DNA of 12,779 nt, taken from contig JAHQWW010000110.1 in the NCBI GenBank assembly GCA_029856365.1, positions 1 to 12,779 on the forward strand, given 5' to 3'. Shown piece by piece: positions 1,435 to 11,975 of this stretch (the stretch's first letter is position 1; every line of letters begins with the position of its first letter). The notes beneath the pieces are model-generated. The model did not search any database, had not been told where the DNA came from, and was given only the letters and a program-made list of their open reading frames with translations. Both the position numbers and the translations under genes were made by a program. This stretch comes from Candidatus Hodarchaeota archaeon. Lineage in GTDB: Archaea; Asgardarchaeota; Heimdallarchaeia; Hodarchaeales; Hodarchaeaceae.

Positions 1435-2700
1435 GTGAACAAAATGAGGTTAAGAAACGAAGTTATCTTTTTTATTTCCCTTATTATCTCATTTGGAGTA
1501 TCCAACTACTCAAGTTACCCAAGATGTCACGTTTTAGAAAATAATTCCTATTCAGGTTACAGAGGTGTCAATTTAGGTAATTTTTTAGAGGCACCAAGTG
1601 AAGGAGAATGGAGTAATGGTATAATAATCCAAAAAAAGCATTTCTATCGAATTGCATCAGCAGGATTTAACCTTGTACGTATTCCTATCCGATGGAATGC
1701 TCATGCTATGGCTACTTCTCCTTATACTATTAATGATTCTTTCTTTGATCGTGTAGATTGGGTAATTAATCAAGGTTTTACGCAAAATCTGTCCATTATT
1801 ATTAATATTCATCATTATAATGAGCTAATGGATCATCCTGAAAGTCATAAGGACCGATTACTTGTTTTATGGCAACAAATTTCCCAACATTATCAGAACT
1901 ATTCAAATAATTTAATTTTCGAAATATTAAATGAACCATACGGCAATTTGACTAATACACTTTGGAACCAATACTTGCAAGAAGCAATTGATATTATTCG
2001 TATAGCCAATCCTAATAGAACACTGATCGTTGGCCCGACGGATTGGAATAATGTATGGGCGCTGAATGAACTCATACTTCCTCAAAATGATTCCAACATA
2101 GTAGTCACGTTCCACTTCTACTCTCCTTTCGAATTTACACACCAAGGTGCCGAATGGGTCTCTGGAAGTAATGCATGGTTAGGTAAAAATTGGAATGGAT
2201 CTCAATCTGAAAAAGATGCTATTAATTATGAATTTGACATTGCAATTAATTGGGCTAAAGCAAACAACAAAAGGTTATTTTTAGGAGAATTTGGTGTATA
2301 TCAATACGCTTTTACGAATAGTCGAATTAGATGGACCACTTATGTACGTACAAAGGCTGAATCACATCCCGAAATGTGGGGGTGGACCTACTGGGAGTTT
2401 TGTGCTGGTTTTGGGATTATGGATAGTAGTTTAACTTACTGGAACAAAGGATTATTGGGTTCTCTCCTTCCAGATAGTCCATTGATTATTATAACTAACA
2501 CCGATACACCCTCTACTACAACCAGTTCACTTCCTGCAACAGATACAACTACTGGGTCTGAAAATAGCACTGTTTCATATTCTATGTCCACCTCGCAGTC
2601 GAATATTTCATCAGTGTTCACTTATCTTGAAATACTACCCATTCTTCTTTTAATTTCCCCTATCACTGTATTCTATACCAAAAGAAGAATTAGAAAATAA
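1435..2700 (+). CDS. Glycoside hydrolase family 5 endoglucanase/mannanase (Thermotoga Cel5A-like), secreted and C-terminally membrane anchored
   Basis: RGVNLGNFLEAP, VRIPIRW, INIHHY, FEILNEP (acid/base E167), FHFYSPFEFTHQGAEW, LGEFG (nucleophile E285), WTYWEF. Has an N-terminal hydrophobic segment, a Ser/Thr-rich linker (aa 354-393), a hydrophobic helix and a KRRIRK tail. True start may be ATG 1444. Confidence 0.93.
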   Translation: MNKMRLRNEVIFFISLIISFGVSNYSSYPRCHVLENNSYSGYRGVNLGNFLEAPSEGEWSNGIIIQKKHFYRIASAGFNLVRIPIRWNAHAMATSPYTINDSFFDRVDWVINQGFTQNLSIIINIHHYNELMDHPESHKDRLLVLWQQISQHYQNYSNNLIFEILNEPYGNLTNTLWNQYLQEAIDIIRIANPNRTLIVGPTDWNNVWALNELILPQNDSNIVVTFHFYSPFEFTHQGAEWVSGSNAWLGKNWNGSQSEKDAINYEFDIAINWAKANNKRLFLGEFGVYQYAFTNSRIRWTTYVRTKAESHPEMWGWTYWEFCAGFGIMDSSLTYWNKGLLGSLLPDSPLIIITNTDTPSTTTSSLPATDTTTGSENSTVSYSMSTSQSNISSVFTYLEILPILLLISPITVFYTKRRIRK

Positions 2701-2721: not shown

Positions 2722-3876
2722 ATGGGATTTAAAATGAAAATTACCTCTCAACATGGCTTAAATCTCTTCCTTTTTTTAATTCTTGGAAGTATCATTGTGA
2801 ACAATCTTTTTTCCTATGATCTGTTCTGGACAGAACCCATGGAGACTCATGTGGATTTCTCAGAACATACTACTCCAATGGAGCCGATATTACACACTTA
2901 TCCACTTAAAATTATTCAAACCAAAGACGCAATATATTATGGGATTTGGCATGTGATGACAGAGGGACTAGAAGACTTATTCTTTTTCGGATCCACTAAT
3001 GATCACAATCAATGGTTCAATTTTATTTCTTTAGACGAAATTTTTTCAGAAATAGAGGGAAATTTAAGGAATTTTGATTTTATATTATTAGAAAATGATT
3101 CAATTGCACTTTTTGGAGTGGTATCCACTTCACAATTAGTGAATGATACGTGGATTGACAAAATTAACGTTATAATGAGTTTATCGGATAATGGAGGAAT
3201 GAGTTGGAGTAAGGTAGTACAAATCAATAGCACAGATCTCCGAAGTACTTATTTCGGGGTGTATCTTGATGATGATATCAAATTCTGGGTAATCGAAGAA
3301 GATTCTGGGGGTCATATTATATACATTAGAATCTGGACTTTTAATGAGAGTACAACTACAATCATACAGACTCACGTTTACCAACCTGAAACTAATTATC
3401 AAATTTATTGGGGAGGAGTCACATTCAATCATCAATTAATTTTTCTAGAGAGAGGGGTTAATATAAATCATCTACTCATCTTTGATGGTACAAATTGGGA
3501 ACAAATACCAATTACCTTGACTGAATATGATCTAGAAAGAATTACTGTTATTAGATCAACCCTTTATTTGATTTATACCTCACCTAACAATATGTTTTAC
3601 ATTGGAAAAGTTAACATTGAAGATCAAGGAACCAACGCAAAAATAACTGGATCAACAAAAATCATTGCAGGGATGAATTGGAATGTAATTTGGCCTATCG
3701 TAAACAGTACTAATACGACATTCTACTTTACTACACACCGTAATGATATTGCTTCAGTCAGAAATGCATTCAATTGGAGTACTGTACTCTTTATCCTTCT
3801 TTTTTCACTGATTTTCATATTAATTTGGCTGTGGCCTATTTTCAGTTCATATCTTTTTATGGAGAAAGAAAAATGA
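2722..3876 (+). CDS. Hypothetical surface protein with an Asp-box/BNR-like motif (probable beta-propeller) and N- and C-terminal TM helices
   Basis: 384-aa ORF with SDNGGMSW (aa 155-162) resembling the Asp-box, degenerate STNDHNQW and FDGTNW, a beta-strand-rich pattern, hydrophobic helices at both ends and 7 N-x-S/T sequons. Confidence 0.7.
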   Translation: MGFKMKITSQHGLNLFLFLILGSIIVNNLFSYDLFWTEPMETHVDFSEHTTPMEPILHTYPLKIIQTKDAIYYGIWHVMTEGLEDLFFFGSTNDHNQWFNFISLDEIFSEIEGNLRNFDFILLENDSIALFGVVSTSQLVNDTWIDKINVIMSLSDNGGMSWSKVVQINSTDLRSTYFGVYLDDDIKFWVIEEDSGGHIIYIRIWTFNESTTTIIQTHVYQPETNYQIYWGGVTFNHQLIFLERGVNINHLLIFDGTNWEQIPITLTEYDLERITVIRSTLYLIYTSPNNMFYIGKVNIEDQGTNAKITGSTKIIAGMNWNVIWPIVNSTNTTFYFTTHRNDIASVRNAFNWSTVLFILLFSLIFILIWLWPIFSSYLFMEKEK

Positions 3877-5024
3877 ATCTTTCCGAATTCTTTAGTTTAA
3901 ATCGCGAAAAAATTCGTCATTATAACAAACTTCAATTTTTAGTGTCATTAATTCTTCAATTGATTTTCCCTTTCCAAAAAGTGATTAGTTATGATTCATA
4001 TGGCAAAAGCACATTAAGAAGGGTTCATCTCATTTGCTATTTTCAAACAGATACGAACACTATAGTAATCCCATTTATTTTTCTAATATTTTTAATAATG
4101 ACTATATATTTCTATTTTATACAGACAGAAACAAAATATTTCGATTTCATGCCTCTAGCGCTAACACCTATCCTTGGTTATAGCATCTTCTCTTGGCTAG
4201 ACACACTAACCCACCCAATAACATTACCTCGTACGGAAACGTATATAGAACTAGGATTAATAATTCTAGGAATCTCAATAATCATTTATTATATATTTTA
4301 TTTTTATGATAGAATATCAGAAGGCGTAATAAATAGTAAATCAGAGAAAGATAAATTTAATACTAATAATAATACTCCTGCATCACGTCTAGAAGAACGA
4401 TGCATTGGTTTTCTTTTGTGTTTCTCAGTATTACCAATTGCTGTCACTATTCCTGCTTTGGGTATTTTTGCCACACATTTCATTAACACTGAAGAGGTTG
4501 CATTCTTTACAGCTTATGGGTTTCCACTTTTATTACCAGAATCATATATTTATTACAGAATATCCTCAATTATTGGTGACATTATATATAATCCGATTTT
4601 TTTCTCTCTGATTTCCCTAGTTTTGTTTTGTACAAGTATATTCGCTATTCGATCCATTTCTAAACGATCTACAATACAAATATCTGAAATCATTTTTATC
4701 ATTACAACATTGGGTTTTCTTTTCCTCATAAATTCTCTATTAATTTTTTCCCTTTATCTCGTTTTCCCTTGGTTTATAATTCCTTTTTGGATGATATATG
4801 ATAGTAAAAAAGATCCGAAACGACTAAAAAATGGTATAACATTAATAATAGTCATTTTAGGCACTGGGATAATAATAGTTTTTGTACAAAACCTGATTCC
4901 CATTGATTTTGGTCTTATGACAGCGGTAATTGGCTTGGATCAGATAAAAATGCGGCCTACATTTATTCTTTTAGCTCTACCGTATCTCATACACAGGATC
5001 CATCAAGGAAGTGTGGGGGAGTAG
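3873..5024 (+). CDS. Hypothetical polytopic membrane protein (about 9-10 hydrophobic segments)
   Basis: Start moved from the track's 3774 to ATG 3873 (MNLSEFF), which overlaps the upstream TGA as ATGA. Many hydrophobic stretches, with a central polar loop (SKSEKDKFNTNNNTP). Confidence 0.75.
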   Translation: MNLSEFFSLNREKIRHYNKLQFLVSLILQLIFPFQKVISYDSYGKSTLRRVHLICYFQTDTNTIVIPFIFLIFLIMTIYFYFIQTETKYFDFMPLALTPILGYSIFSWLDTLTHPITLPRTETYIELGLIILGISIIIYYIFYFYDRISEGVINSKSEKDKFNTNNNTPASRLEERCIGFLLCFSVLPIAVTIPALGIFATHFINTEEVAFFTAYGFPLLLPESYIYYRISSIIGDIIYNPIFFSLISLVLFCTSIFAIRSISKRSTIQISEIIFIITTLGFLFLINSLLIFSLYLVFPWFIIPFWMIYDSKKDPKRLKNGITLIIVILGTGIIIVFVQNLIPIDFGLMTAVIGLDQIKMRPTFILLALPYLIHRIHQGSVGE

Positions 5025-5126: not shown

Positions 5127-6071
5127 ATGGTAATTGTTTCTGTTGTCCAAAATGAGAATGTTGAATTCGCAGTTCAAAAGGTAATTAGTCTTCTTGGAGG
5201 GATTGAGAGGTTTTTAAATCCTCGAGATAAAGTAATTATCAAACCAAACTTGGTTGTAGATCTCCCCTCAGACACGGGGGTAACAACTGATCCACGAGTT
5301 GTCCAAGCTATCGTAGAGTTGTGTAAACGCGTAGATCCGTCAAAAATTACTATTGCCGAGGGATCAGGTGGAGTAGATACCAAAATTGCATTTGAAAGAT
5401 GCGGATACACTGACCTGGCACAGAAATATAACGTCGAGCTCCTAGACTTAAATGAGAGTCAAACTAGATTGGTGGATGTCCCAAATGGTAAAGCTATCGA
5501 TGTGTTGAATGTTCCAGATGTCATACTTGAGAGCGATGTTCTAATAAATGTGCCCAAACTTAAGTTATATTCATACCCCTGGGCAAGCCTAGCTATCAAG
5601 AATCTCTTGGGTACTGTTCCTGGAAAGGGAGAATACTCACAAACTTCATCTCTGGATTTTCCCATTAAGTTATCTAATGAATATTTGACACCCGAAAGAA
5701 AAGGTCCATGGTTTGGTCCAAGGGGTGAAAAGCAGAGGATCCACAAGAAATTTGCTGAAAGCATTGTGGATTTGAATACGGTGATACAGCCATCCTTAAC
5801 CGTAATAGACGGTATTGTGGCAGGTTATGGAAAAAAATTTTCAGAGGGAGCAAAGCCCCTAGAACTCAATACAATACTTGCTGGTAAGGATCCTCTAGCA
5901 CTTGATTACATTGCGACTAAGATAGCTGGACTGAATCCGCTCGAAATATCATATCTTAAGCACGCATCAGAAAGGGGGATTGGAGAATCGGATTACCACC
6001 TAATTCAAGTTGTAGGAACTCCTTTGGATAAGATCATAAAAACTTGGGAAAATAGATTGGCTAACAAATAA
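5127..6071 (+). CDS. DUF362 family protein (no fused ferredoxin domain)
   Basis: VIIKPNLV, TTDPRVV, IAEGSG, LINVPKLK, AIKNLLG, TVIDGI and DPLALD motifs in the order typical of DUF362. Confidence 0.85.
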   Translation: MVIVSVVQNENVEFAVQKVISLLGGIERFLNPRDKVIIKPNLVVDLPSDTGVTTDPRVVQAIVELCKRVDPSKITIAEGSGGVDTKIAFERCGYTDLAQKYNVELLDLNESQTRLVDVPNGKAIDVLNVPDVILESDVLINVPKLKLYSYPWASLAIKNLLGTVPGKGEYSQTSSLDFPIKLSNEYLTPERKGPWFGPRGEKQRIHKKFAESIVDLNTVIQPSLTVIDGIVAGYGKKFSEGAKPLELNTILAGKDPLALDYIATKIAGLNPLEISYLKHASERGIGESDYHLIQVVGTPLDKIIKTWENRLANK

Positions 6072-6122: not shown

Positions 6123-7421
6123 CTATGAGTTTTTTGCTAGAGCTATTTTCAACAGTAACGCTACATTCTTTGCTGCTACTATCGCTGTTTCCAGTGTTGA
6201 TGCGATTGATTCTATGGTATTAATATTAAACAGCCTCATATCTAAAATAAATGGTTGAAATTCTCTGAATGGCTTCGCTATAGGATGTGCAAATTCCCAA
6301 ACATAATCTTCTTCTATTATTCGTTCTAAAAACATTTGTTGTACTAGATCGTCAGTTATTGGATTGGTAGCAAATAGATTATAGATGTACAGACCATTTT
6401 CTGTTTTTCCTAATGTTTCTAAATTATCAAATGGACCTTTGAAATCTGCAGTTGTTAATAACAATTCAGGAATATCAGTAATGTTTTGTAATCCAAAATA
6501 TTGTGGATTAAGTAAGCCCGTGATAAGTTTGATGTAAACCTTCTGATATTTTCGATATGTCATTTCTGGTAATGTGATATTTGTAAACTCTATTTTGAGT
6601 TGTTCAAATGGAGCAGCTAGAATCACCGCATCAAACTCCTCTGAACTCCCTTTCTGATTTGTTAGATTGTAAGTTCCTTGATCTGTTTTGATTATCTTTG
6701 TTATTTTATATTTTAGTTTCACGTCGGCATCTGCAGATTTTATAAGTTTGTTATTAAATTGAACATTCCCATTTTTTAATTTGTAAAGTGGTGTTCCATC
6801 GGAAGCAATAATTGTAGTAATACCCGCAAAACCACCAATATCAATATTCTGATGGTAAATGTATCGTACTCCTGGTTCTAGAATTTCTTTGATTAACTTA
6901 GATGACACACCATTCTCTAGGAGAACATTTTCTAATGTTTTTAATTTCAGAGCTACAATAAAAGGAATGTTTAGCAATTCTTCACATGTTTTGTAAGCGA
7001 ATTCAAAATGGTTGTTCGTGTAGAGCTTTAAAATTTCCCTCTTCGATTTTTTTAGTAAATAATGAAGCCTGAGGGCACTCAATCGATAGCGAAACAATAA
7101 TCTTAGGTTAGTCACTAAAGGAGATTTATTTGATTTATATATGAATTTGGATCCATCCCACACTCCTATGACTGGTAGAACGAATTTTTCTGTCTCTAAG
7201 GAAAACTTTCTCACAAATTCTAGGATATTTTGATTAATTGTATGAAAAAAGGTTCCCCCAAGTTCAATCATTACTGGTTCGATTTTTCGTGCAAGTAAAC
7301 GGCCACCAATACGATCATTGGCTTCAAAGATTGTAATATTCATATCATCAGGGATTAATTCTTTAACAAAATATGCAGCAGAACATCCCCCAATACCTGA
7401 TCCAATTATTGCTAATTTCAT
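6123..7421 (-). CDS. FAD-dependent oxidoreductase, prenylcysteine oxidase/lyase (PCYOX1)-like
   Basis: Rossmann motif IIGSGIGGCSAAYF, IGGRL, ELGGTFFH. Downstream motifs GVWDG, LLFRY, RYIYHQ, DAVILAAP, GLLNPQYFG, LLTT, W-x-x-AHP and NTIESIASTLETAIVAAKNVALL match my recollection of eukaryotic PCYOX along the full length. ATG 7421 has GGTGGG upstream; ATG 7433 is an alternative start. Confidence 0.85.
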   Translation of the reverse strand: MKLAIIGSGIGGCSAAYFVKELIPDDMNITIFEANDRIGGRLLARKIEPVMIELGGTFFHTINQNILEFVRKFSLETEKFVLPVIGVWDGSKFIYKSNKSPLVTNLRLLFRYRLSALRLHYLLKKSKREILKLYTNNHFEFAYKTCEELLNIPFIVALKLKTLENVLLENGVSSKLIKEILEPGVRYIYHQNIDIGGFAGITTIIASDGTPLYKLKNGNVQFNNKLIKSADADVKLKYKITKIIKTDQGTYNLTNQKGSSEEFDAVILAAPFEQLKIEFTNITLPEMTYRKYQKVYIKLITGLLNPQYFGLQNITDIPELLLTTADFKGPFDNLETLGKTENGLYIYNLFATNPITDDLVQQMFLERIIEEDYVWEFAHPIAKPFREFQPFILDMRLFNINTIESIASTLETAIVAAKNVALLLKIALAKNS

Positions 7422-7449
7422 TCTACCCACCATTTTTCTTACTTATTTC

Positions 7450-7470
7450 GATCAAGAAACTCCAGCTTAT
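7450..7470 (-). promoter_or_regulatory. Putative operator/promoter element ATAAGCT-N4-TTTCTTGATC upstream of the PCYOX-like gene
   Basis: Second copy of the motif at 426-445. Confidence 0.45.
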
Positions 7471-7610
7471 TCGTATCATTAATGTTAATGGTATCTAAAA
7501 GTTCTTTCTATCCCAAAAAACAATGGATTATAAACAATTCCTGTAAGTGGTTTTTATAGGAGTAGGTTTGTTAATATCTACAAAAATGTTAGAAAAAAGC
7601 TGACCCATTG

Positions 7611-7625
7611 GAAATTTTTTAAATA
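7611..7625 (+). promoter_or_regulatory. Candidate archaeal BRE/TATA promoter for a leaderless MttB-family mRNA
   Basis: GAAATTTTTTAAATA, with TTTAAATA starting 30 nt before ATG 7648. No Shine-Dalgarno-like sequence precedes that ATG. Confidence 0.45.
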
Positions 7626-7647
7626 CCACAGAATTCTTGGATTATTT

Positions 7648-9078
7648 ATGCTAAAATTGTCTATTTTAACACAACAACAACAAGATTCAATTCATGTGGC
7701 CGCACTAAATGTACTAAAAACCGTCGGTTGTGAGATTCAAGATAAGAAATGGCTAGATCTCTTATCGAAAAACGGAGTAAAAGTCGATTTCAAAACTTCA
7801 AAGGTGTTTATAACTGATGAAGACATTGTTAACTCCTCACTTGAATCCTGTGGTCACTCAATTAAATATGCAGCCAGAGATCCCCAAAAAGATTGGATTA
7901 TAGGGCAAGGGGCAGCTAAAACCCATACACCTGAAGGCATGACACACATTATCGATCTAGAATCAAGACTTTACCGAGAAGCCAAATTATCAGATCTGGC
8001 AGATCTCACAAAAATTTGTGATTTTCTCCCCAATATCGATGGAGTAATCGATCCTGTGGTTCCTTATGATGTTCCTCCTACATTACAAAGTGTAATAATT
8101 ACAAAAACACTGATAGAAAATACGACGAAACCAGTCGATCCAGCAGGAATTGCTTTGAAGGAAGGTTTTCCTTATGTCATGCAGATGCTCATTACTCTCC
8201 TTGGGGATCGTGATATATCAGAATATAGTTTAGGTGTTGGTGTTACTGCTACAAGTCCATTACAATTTCCATTTGACCAATTAGATACCTATTGGCAAGG
8301 AATTGAGCTTGGATCATCCTGTGATGTTGGTTCGATGCCACAAGCGGGATCAACAGCTCCAGCCTCTCTAGCAGGGACATTAACTTTGTTCGTAGCTGAA
8401 ATACTAATGGGACTCATTATGGGACAGATAAAAAAGCCTGGATTATCCCAGTTTGTCTTTGTGAGGCCTTGTCTTTCGAATCCACGTTTTGGGATTTTTA
8501 ATTCAGGTCCACCCGAAGTTGGATTGCTCCAAGCAGCAGCCACTCAATTATGTAAAGAAAAATACGGCCTCCTTGTTAATGCGGGTTGGGGAGTAAGTGA
8601 TTCTCAGTGCATTAATCCCCAAGTAGCCTATGAGAAATGTTATATCTGGATGATGTCGCTAGCTGCTGGTGCAGATATGATTTCAGGTGTTGGAGGCCTC
8701 GGTAGCGGGTTAATATCTTCTCCCGCACAAATTGTTATTGATGATGAAATCATTGCTCACCTTAGACGAGGTGTCCAAGGAATTATTGTAGATGATTTCC
8801 ATTTAGGCGTGGAAATGATTGAAGATATTGGTATTGGTCAAACATTTCTTTTCCATCCAAAAACAAGCCAAATTATTAGGGAAGAATGGTTATTATCTGA
8901 ACTCCCAAACCGAAATTCGTATAATACATGGAAAGTTGAAGGTGCAGCTGATTTAGTTAGTAGAGCAGAAAAAAATGCTAAAGAAATTCTTACGAAGCAT
9001 AAAGTAGAAGCTTTGGATCCCAATCTAGAAGAAGACCTTAATTGTATCCTTAAAGAGGCCAAAAAAATGTTACTATAA
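7648..9078 (+). CDS. Trimethylamine methyltransferase (MttB) superfamily protein, non-pyrrolysine type
   Basis: IHVAALNVLKTVG, ARDP, NTTKP, SPLQF, MPQAGSTAPASLAGTL, GPPE, SDSQ-x-x-x-x-QVAYEK and QIVIDDEI motifs. Uninterrupted 476-aa ORF with Val316 (GTA) at the position equivalent to Pyl. Confidence 0.9.
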   Translation: MLKLSILTQQQQDSIHVAALNVLKTVGCEIQDKKWLDLLSKNGVKVDFKTSKVFITDEDIVNSSLESCGHSIKYAARDPQKDWIIGQGAAKTHTPEGMTHIIDLESRLYREAKLSDLADLTKICDFLPNIDGVIDPVVPYDVPPTLQSVIITKTLIENTTKPVDPAGIALKEGFPYVMQMLITLLGDRDISEYSLGVGVTATSPLQFPFDQLDTYWQGIELGSSCDVGSMPQAGSTAPASLAGTLTLFVAEILMGLIMGQIKKPGLSQFVFVRPCLSNPRFGIFNSGPPEVGLLQAAATQLCKEKYGLLVNAGWGVSDSQCINPQVAYEKCYIWMMSLAAGADMISGVGGLGSGLISSPAQIVIDDEIIAHLRRGVQGIIVDDFHLGVEMIEDIGIGQTFLFHPKTSQIIREEWLLSELPNRNSYNTWKVEGAADLVSRAEKNAKEILTKHKVEALDPNLEEDLNCILKEAKKMLL

Positions 9079-10961: not shown

Positions 10962-11975
10962 TCATGCAAATTGATCACCAATCAAACCACTTCGGCGATA
11001 ATACTCCAGTTGCTTAAGATCATGAGATGCAACTAGATTAATTGACTCTTCTGGGTTATTCCAGATATTATCGAAAAGCCATCTTAGTTGGTGACCTAAG
11101 AGTCCTCCGTTTTCATATCTGATTAACATACCTATCCTTGAATGATTGGTAAGGTGTTTAATATTGATTAGATTCCAGGCAATGTCACCAATGAATAGAA
11201 ATTCTTCTCCATTTTTCAATTGAACATAAATCATTTGGGAACCATAACTATGGCCAGGAGCTTTGATTAACACAATCCCTGGAACAAGAACATGATACTG
11301 ATCATATTCGAATGGAATATAATCATCCAATACATCTTGTGGAAAATTGGCCATCTTAATTGTATGACCAGATATTTGTTCAGAGGTTAAGACAGCTTTC
11401 CTCATAAGTTCATTAATATAAGGTGATTGAGCAATTCCGCCTATATGATCCCAATATTCATGAGTTACAAGGATGAAATCAGCTTCCAGTAATGCTTTCT
11501 GCATAATATTGAAATTCTTCTCATAAAAAGCATTCCCCTTAATCCCCAAGAGTTTAAAACGGCAGAACTTGTCATATAACGCTTTATTGAAAGGACATTC
11601 AATGATAATAGTTTTATCTTTATATACTACCTGAAATGATGTAAAAGAAATGTGAAAATTATGAGGGGCCCCTCCTGCAACAACAATCCAGTCTGGAATT
11701 TCCCCCTCTGCTACTATCAAACTATTTAAATGAGTCGGAAGCTGCCTCTGTTCTGATGTAGCTAGGTTTCTGACGATCTCAAGATCCAAGGTAAAATTAG
11801 AAATTTCAGGAATAGAATTTTTCTCAAAAAGGAAGTATTCGAATAGCCAAAGAGTACTTGATAGAAAAACTACTAGAAGAGTAGTCGGTAAACTCAATAA
11901 TGAGAATGTGAATCCAACTAATGAACAAAGAATACTAATTGGACATAGTAATCTTAAGCACTTTCTCAATCGCAT
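10962..11975 (-). CDS. Metallo-beta-lactamase-fold hydrolase with an N-terminal membrane segment and a variant metal motif
   Basis: THEYWDHIGG (HxHxDH with the second His replaced by Tyr), APGHSYGSQ, FIGDIAW and ASHD. Hydrophobic N-terminus. Confidence 0.85.
   Translation of the reverse strand: MRLRKCLRLLCPISILCSLVGFTFSLLSLPTTLLVVFLSSTLWLFEYFLFEKNSIPEISNFTLDLEIVRNLATSEQRQLPTHLNSLIVAEGEIPDWIVVAGGAPHNFHISFTSFQVVYKDKTIIIECPFNKALYDKFCRFKLLGIKGNAFYEKNFNIMQKALLEADFILVTHEYWDHIGGIAQSPYINELMRKAVLTSEQISGHTIKMANFPQDVLDDYIPFEYDQYHVLVPGIVLIKAPGHSYGSQMIYVQLKNGEEFLFIGDIAWNLINIKHLTNHSRIGMLIRYENGGLLGHQLRWLFDNIWNNPEESINLVASHDLKQLEYYRRSGLIGDQFA

Follow-up and report, generated by a model that had tools for sequence, protein, structure and literature searches.

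The window, by which we mean the whole 12,779-nucleotide stretch of DNA analysed here, encodes a full-length PCYOX-family flavoprotein in an Asgard archaeon. Across prokaryotes it has the patchy distribution of an accessory gene, with copies in Asgard archaea, Bathyarchaeia and bacteria. An Asgard PCYOX has already been published, and the protein described here is a further Hodarchaeales member of a known family. As for its role, we lean towards a stand-alone enzyme that would apply PCYOX chemistry to a long-chain S-isoprenyl small molecule for the purpose of salvage.

The family assignment rests on both sequence and fold. The match to PF07156 (Prenylcys_lyase) scored 190 bits against a cut-off of 27 (E=8e-56) and covered profile positions 5–353 of 363, which bears out the initial annotation's claim, made from the letters alone, of a full-length family member. 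The sole full-length sequence match in the PDB was ancestral mammalian PCYOX1 (9FXQ; PMC11530802), aligned over residues 6–427 with E 1.3e-45. An AlphaFold model of the protein (pLDDT 94, pTM 0.92) superposed on 9FXQ with a TM score of 0.90 (E 7e-37), and all other structures reached at most 0.70, amine oxidases and HemY included. A search of the ESM Atlas was concordant, with a TM score of 0.94 to a Streptophyta cluster. Identity to PCYOX1 is about 26–30%, and the best named eukaryotic sequence matches were plant FCLY proteins (30–32% identity, E~1e-50). We rejected an identity as HemY or flavin amine oxidase, in agreement with the initial annotation: these proteins share the Rossmann FAD fold but align mostly to the first ~90 residues only, and their NCBIfam scores lay far below the cut-offs (60 vs 517 and 57 vs 98 bits, for the N-terminal part only).

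The reading frame (Table 1) is stop-free and intact. The initial annotation had placed its start at 7421, which is the second ATG, four codons downstream of the first, and would give a product of 432 aa. A GGTGG Shine-Dalgarno-like motif lies 5 nt upstream of this ATG; the frame itself extends to 7433, and either codon may be the true start. The Rossmann segment carries GxGxxG at residues 11–16, E37, GGR at 43–45, E57/G59 and N67. The motifs quoted earlier are all in the protein: LLFRY at 112, RYIYHQ at 190, GLLNPQYFG at 306 and LLTT at 325. Residues 401–427 hold the C-terminal motif, whose alignment to the PCYOX1 chain in 9FXQ is gap-free; nine further residues follow it, so the protein does not end in the motif as first described. 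We found no N-terminal leader or signal peptide in the protein, which reaches GxGxxG already at residue 11 and thus starts at the Rossmann fold as had been noted. Transmembrane segments are likewise lacking, with hydropathy over 19 residues peaking at 1.57, as is a KDEL-type end or any other ER-retention signal. Lacking a leader, it is presumably cytoplasmic.

Table 1 Coordinates of the features in the window and of related loci elsewhere.
Feature	Location	Strand	Remarks
PCYOX/farnesylcysteine-lyase family flavoprotein ORF	6123–7433	-	436 aa
N-terminal FAD-binding Rossmann segment (PF13450)	7203–7421	-	residues ~5–77
Prenylcys_lyase domain (PF07156)	6141–7127	-	residues 103–431
Intergenic region, PCYOX gene to divergent MttB-family gene	7434–7647		214 bp; presumed promoter region
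GH5 glycoside hydrolase	1435–2700	+	N-terminal signal-like segment, Ser/Thr-rich linker, C-terminal membrane anchor; predicted surface polysaccharide hydrolase
Membrane-anchored, probably beta-propeller-like protein	2722–3876	+	directly behind the GH5 gene; no Pfam match
Polytopic membrane protein	3873–5024	+	4-nt overlap with the preceding gene; no Pfam match
DUF362 gene	5127–6071	+	atypical codon usage (2nd percentile), GC3 95th percentile; candidate recent acquisition
MttB-family trimethylamine-methyltransferase-like gene	7648–9078	+	lacks an in-frame amber codon (non-pyrrolysine type); at least 3 genome paralogues at 26–27% identity
Membrane-anchored protein, metallo-beta-lactamase-fold-like by eye	10962–11975	-	HEYWDH replaces HxHxDH; no Pfam match at E 0.1
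UbiA-linked loci, other Heimdallarchaeia	L103, L104, L109
UbiA-linked locus, second probable Asgard	L105
UbiA-linked loci, Bathyarchaeia	L060/061/068/091/165/167
UbiA-linked locus, metagenome	L156
UbiA-linked locus, acidobacterium	L086
Acidobacterial UbiA preceded by a fused ~250-residue membrane domain that belongs to no known family	L086:6352–7971		41 bp downstream of the PCYOX-like gene
Loci of one heimdallarchaeial genome with two PCYOX-like genes	L116:7812–9131 (G045:C117); L114:6921–8173 (G045:C293)
PF00432 alpha/alpha-toroid frames	L206–L215 (e.g. G056:C22, G079:C183, G055:C2)		mostly 765–1987 aa, often in tandem pairs; only in COX1-bearing families of the class

We then compared individual residues with PCYOX1 through the alignment to the 9FXQ chain, whose numbering is offset by 20 from that of the paper. 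Mutants of PCYOX1 have shown that loss of Tyr221 abolishes both activity and substrate binding, that Val234 has to remain small, and that position 433 tolerates replacement of its Tyr (PMC11530802, Barone et al. 2024). All three mutationally tested active-site positions are compatible in the archaeal protein: the Tyr221 counterpart is Y193, invariant in the archaeal group of the family tree, the Val234 counterpart is T206, and the Tyr433 counterpart is H383, a site that holds His in PCYOX1-like as well. Of the 51 columns that at least 80% of eukaryotic members conserve, the archaeal protein matches 42, and it retains the family-wide R190, Q195, E408, S412 and E415. The protein departs from eukaryotes at several sites that they hold fixed (K352 to N, T302 to K, N192 to I, Y403 to N, with S355 and others). 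Thr302 and Lys352 are found in eukaryotes and in most bacterial-group members; most of the archaeal group has Lys or Arg at 302 and no Lys352, and K352 occurs in none of the 85 aligned rows that have K/R302. By analogy with the amine-oxidase fold, adjacent strands may have traded a flavin-side lysine, and the pattern may reflect one single evolutionary event.

Set against PCYOX1 as a whole, the archaeal protein thus differs in having no signal peptide or ER-retention signal, in the replacement of Val234 by Thr and in the loss of Lys352 with a Lys at 302, and its host differs in having no detected protein-prenylation machinery. Plant FCLY carries a signal peptide and recycles prenylcysteine downstream of CaaX prenylation; neither feature applies to the archaeal protein. 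Prokaryotic members in RefSeq resemble it in being leaderless, 430–450 aa long and built of the same domains, but unlike it they belong to the other group of the tree, which is mostly bacterial, and their names are automated.

The gene is single-copy in a 4.24 Mb Asgard genome (84% complete, 59 Ras-family hits). Proteins encoded in genomes of its genus are identical to records labelled Hodarchaeota or Hodarchaeales, which would place the host in Hodarchaeales within Heimdallarchaeia. Its codon usage is ordinary (54th percentile of the genome), the GC content of the contig is 0.348 compared with 0.354 for the genome, and its closest homologues lie in Hodarchaeales genomes of the same genus. Contamination is therefore unlikely and very recent transfer is ruled out on the same grounds, which upholds the earlier assignment to an Asgard host rather than to eukaryotic contamination.

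To describe the distribution of the family, we searched 399 genomes of the phylum with PF07156. Twelve had a match above the cut-off, all within class Heimdallarchaeia (n=83), and none of the 316 Asgard genomes outside the class did. Carriers within the class comprised 6 of 22 genomes in the source genus and, in two further families, 2 of 3 and 4 of 12. When GTDB was scanned by pattern, about 32 loci came from Bathyarchaeia and five from bacteria (Chloroflexota, Acidobacteriota), and in even genome samples the gene was present in 7 of 301 Bathyarchaeia (about 2%) and 1 of 301 Chloroflexota, each count taking in the seed genome. Further carriers are found in Bacillota and in the haloarchaeon Halosegnis longus; RefSeq applies the label 'prenylcysteine lyase family protein' to proteins of Thermicanus aegyptius (WP_028986632.1) and H. 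longus (WP_075938086.1). Haloferax volcanii, a control, had no PF07156 match. A scan with a single bacterial query locus gave no matches and diverse alignments offered no conserved pattern, so the bacterial group is under-sampled. Virus-borne spread was also considered and set aside, as a pattern search of limited sensitivity found no full-length viral copy. Given all these carriers outside Asgard archaea, the protein is not a eukaryotic signature protein in the strict sense of being absent from other prokaryotes; the initial annotation had suggested that it could be a eukaryotic signature protein. One heimdallarchaeial genome holds a very divergent second PCYOX-like gene, with one close relative (P0243), together with an ordinary copy split into two frames.

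Within the class, the gene is confined to the three families with cytochrome c oxidase subunit I (COX1) and is found in none of 44 genomes from families without COX1. This restriction is in line with a report of aerobic potential in Heimdallarchaeia (bioRxiv 2024.07.04.601786). The link does not extend to the genus, where COX1 is present in 3 of 6 carriers and 6 of 16 non-carriers, and the source genome, at 84% completeness, had no COX1 match.

In the window the gene stands alone, with a convergent DUF362 gene on one side and a divergent MttB-family gene on the other. A scan of the region between the PCYOX and MttB-family genes with bacterial-type promoter and terminator models, applied here to an archaeal host, gave nothing above chance. 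We rejected a 'salvage operon' with MttB, lipase, NUDIX or DUF362, as the flanking genes are convergent or divergent and no neighbour from the window recurs at 50+ homologous loci; a relative at 83% identity has a different neighbour gene. No UbiA gene lies beside PCYOX in the source genome. Among 49 independent neighbourhood groups, however, five have a UbiA-family gene within 1.5 kb of PCYOX, where ~0.4 would be expected (post hoc Poisson P~6e-5 at 2.5 UbiA genes per Mb). At densities of 1.5–4 UbiA genes per Mb, the expectation is 0.24–0.64 and P ranges from 5e-6 to 5e-4; once some hundreds of possible families are roughly allowed for, the linkage is suggestive rather than decisive. The linked UbiA proteins bear a weak resemblance to several acceptor classes. 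They do not form a single partner family, as they span at least four subfamilies, none with an orthologue in the source genome, and the subfamily linked in Heimdallarchaeia was found in no Hodarchaeales genome. At L109 a PAP2 lipid phosphatase lies between PCYOX and UbiA, and short-chain (SDR) reductases adjoin two PCYOX copies. With UbiA, PAP2 and SDR genes beside PCYOX, the neighbourhoods of relatives point to isoprenoid handling by prenyl transfer, phosphate removal and aldehyde reduction. Separately, seven Bathyarchaeia-type loci have a 205-aa membrane protein after PCYOX with PAP2-like motifs by eye and no Pfam PAP2 match.

How would such an enzyme work? Characterized PCYOX enzymes transfer a hydride to FAD to form a thiocarbenium, which is hydrolysed to aldehyde and thiol, and the flavin is reoxidized by O2 (PMC11530802). 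By homology, the archaeal protein would be a soluble FAD enzyme, probably acting at the membrane surface, that works like PCYOX1. It would bind an isoprenoid of C15–C20 or longer, S-linked to cysteine or a similar small thiol, and pass a hydride from prenyl C1 to FAD. Hydrolysis of the resulting thiocarbenium would then release the free thiol and an isoprenoid aldehyde, and FAD would most likely be reoxidized by O2, yielding H2O2, or possibly by another acceptor. Its role in the cell may be accessory salvage of isoprenoid and sulfur, or detoxification, outside any CaaX protein-prenylation cycle, with S-prenyl substrates supplied by detritus or as by-products of the cell's own prenyltransferases. 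The basis of this proposal is the family, the fold, the flavin- and substrate-site residues, and a gene without leader, operon or detected prenylation machinery; it is supported by the TM score of 0.90, the 42 of 51 columns, the kept Y193, the UbiA context of relatives and the restriction to COX1-bearing families. Scavenging of S-isoprenyl compounds, which the initial annotation had offered as its alternative, is close to this proposal and plausible.

Several points weigh against this proposal: the low identity to PCYOX1, the changed eukaryote-fixed residues and the Thr in place of Val234; in the source genome, the missing UbiA neighbour and COX1 match; among relatives, the diversity of linked UbiA subfamilies, with the heimdallarchaeial one lacking from Hodarchaeales; and the want of a COX1 link within the genus. 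Bathyarchaeia carriers are generally held to be anaerobes, and we know of no natural S-prenyl metabolite described in these archaea. The likely anaerobes among the carriers also favour a different view, in which the same fold serves another chemistry, perhaps that of a dehydrogenase, and acts on an N- or O-prenylated or alkylated UbiA product, an amine, or an intermediate on the way to carotenoids or quinones. The family has its roots in the amine-oxidase fold, the archaeal group has substitutions of its own near conserved sites, including the mutually exclusive K/R302 and K352, and the acceptor classes that the linked UbiA proteins weakly resemble are several. We nevertheless judge this rather unlikely, because Tyr221 and the set R190/Q195/E408/S412/E415 are held in common with eukaryotes and all members tested biochemically in PMC11530802 cleave prenyl thioethers. 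Another candidate substrate is thioether-linked archaeol-cysteine (in bacteria, diacylglyceryl-cysteine) left after lipoprotein degradation. Archaeal lipoproteins bear S-linked archaeol, but lipoproteins are few in TACK and Asgard archaea (PMC12462473), home of most archaeal carriers. The gene's presence in H. longus and in bacteria would suit such recycling; Haloferax volcanii, rich in these lipoproteins, has no PF07156 match, the carbon next to the sulfur is not allylic, and the two-chain lipid would probably be bulky for the tunnel. We regard this option as very improbable.

The initial annotation had also raised the turnover of prenylated proteins before eukaryogenesis, in which the archaeon would prenylate proteins on cysteine and the enzyme would dispose of the prenylcysteine. 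At first sight the genome is inviting, with its many Ras-family hits and its 14 Rce1-like and 17 ICMT-like hits. The latter two families are widespread among ordinary prokaryotes, and both matched in our prokaryotic controls too; with the genome's roughly 11 UbiA genes, we read these numbers as expanded lipid-related membrane families. The prenyltransferase alpha subunit (PPTA) gave no match in the 84% complete source genome, and across the phylum PPTA gave only borderline single TPR-like repeats. A full-length beta subunit was not found anywhere in the class, where PF00432 matches cover about half of the profile and lie mostly in frames of 765–1987 aa; in the source genome there were two partial matches, one to a protein of 275 aa that weakly resembles squalene cyclases and one to a 1977-aa frame. 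Of its 56 Ras-family proteins, not one has a CaaX, CC or CXC terminus, and over 3287 ORFs Cys at positions -1 to -5 was at or below expectation. At the genome level, protein prenylation is largely refuted, and we give this explanation scarcely any credence.

We next turned to the question of origin, which is separate from that of function. In trees built with IQ-TREE 'quick' or FastTree, leaderless sequences fell into two groups with the eukaryotic sequences between them, the label 'eukaryote' resting on a signal peptide in most rows and on the name in some. Group A unites Heimdallarchaeia, including the source protein, with Bathyarchaeia; group B contains bacteria and haloarchaea and, mostly bacterial, includes the T. 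aegyptius and H. longus proteins. The phylogeny proposed by the initial annotation yielded a distinct archaeal group, but it did not keep the Asgard sequences together: Hodarchaeales cluster with Bathyarchaeia (SH-aLRT 97–98), and AU tests, whose p-values are indicative only since the constrained groups were defined after the trees had been inspected, rejected Asgard monophyly (p=0.026) and monophyly of all eukaryotes (p=0.001) and did not reject monophyly of core eukaryotes with eight A- or B-branching sequences left free (p=0.14). From the first two of these observations, at least one inter-phylum transfer of the gene is likely. Rooting with HemY and flavoproteins of the genome gave a polytomy in which the outgroup was not monophyletic. 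Eight signal-peptide-bearing sequences lay off the main eukaryotic set (P0067, P0106, P0126; P0156, P0163, P0220, P0158, P0196). One set of them, to which an Amphiura protein belongs, branched close to the archaeal group and another, with Namystynia, joined the bacterial group; they are possibly unrecognised paralogues or separate transfers.

Could PCYOX have been present in a heimdallarchaeial ancestor and have passed vertically to eukaryotes, its patchiness reflecting loss and transfer to Bathyarchaeia? Within Asgard the gene occurs only in class Heimdallarchaeia, where it is far commoner (12/83) than in Bathyarchaeia or Chloroflexota, and Heimdallarchaeia, including the very divergent second paralogue, form the deepest branches of the archaeal group. 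The result for core eukaryotes is compatible with such descent, and PCYOX1 stands on the iESP list (PMC12962969). On the other side, 71 of the 83 class genomes and, within the genus, 16 of 22 lack the gene, the eukaryote-type residues K352, T302 and G117 are commoner in the bacterial than in the archaeal group, and, with all-eukaryote monophyly rejected and the root a polytomy, transfer from eukaryotes or bacteria fits equally. We consider a vertical origin doubtful. As the archaeal group is separate, Asgard monophyly is rejected and the root is a polytomy, inheritance from Asgard archaea by eukaryotes is not demonstrated.

Köstlbacher et al. (bioRxiv 2024.07.03.601958; Nat Microbiol 2026, PMC12962969) name PCYOX1 (Q5R748) among Asgard 'iESP', likewise reporting an Asgard protein with PCYOX1 as best structural match; this takes up one main-text sentence, and the main text has no phylogeny, distribution, gene context or assay. 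PCYOX is not mentioned in the supplements of Eme et al. 2023. The novelty implied by the initial annotation is reduced accordingly, with an iESP entry and RefSeq labels already in existence, although a literature search found no dedicated study or assay of prokaryotic members.

These results change how the iESP flag should be read, as the enzyme occurs without protein prenylation and outside Asgard archaea, and the eukaryogenesis reading of PCYOX is unsupported. It seems quite unlikely, if a little less so than archaeol-cysteine recycling, that the archaeal PCYOX group is both ancestral to the eukaryotic enzyme and half of an undescribed make/break system in which UbiA-type membrane prenyltransferases make an S-prenyl metabolite or modification; if true, thioether prenyl turnover would be older than CaaX prenylation and would have passed from oxygen-using Heimdallarchaeia to eukaryotes. 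The recurrent UbiA linkage supplies candidate partner proteins. T. aegyptius and H. longus, with isolate-type genomes, are potential genetic hosts, and ancestral mammalian PCYOX enzymes can be expressed in E. coli (PMC11530802). Should the archaeal protein prove to be an active prenyl-thioether oxidase in organisms with no known S-prenyl substrate, this would point to detritus scavenging by sediment archaea or to a novel archaeal S-prenylation.
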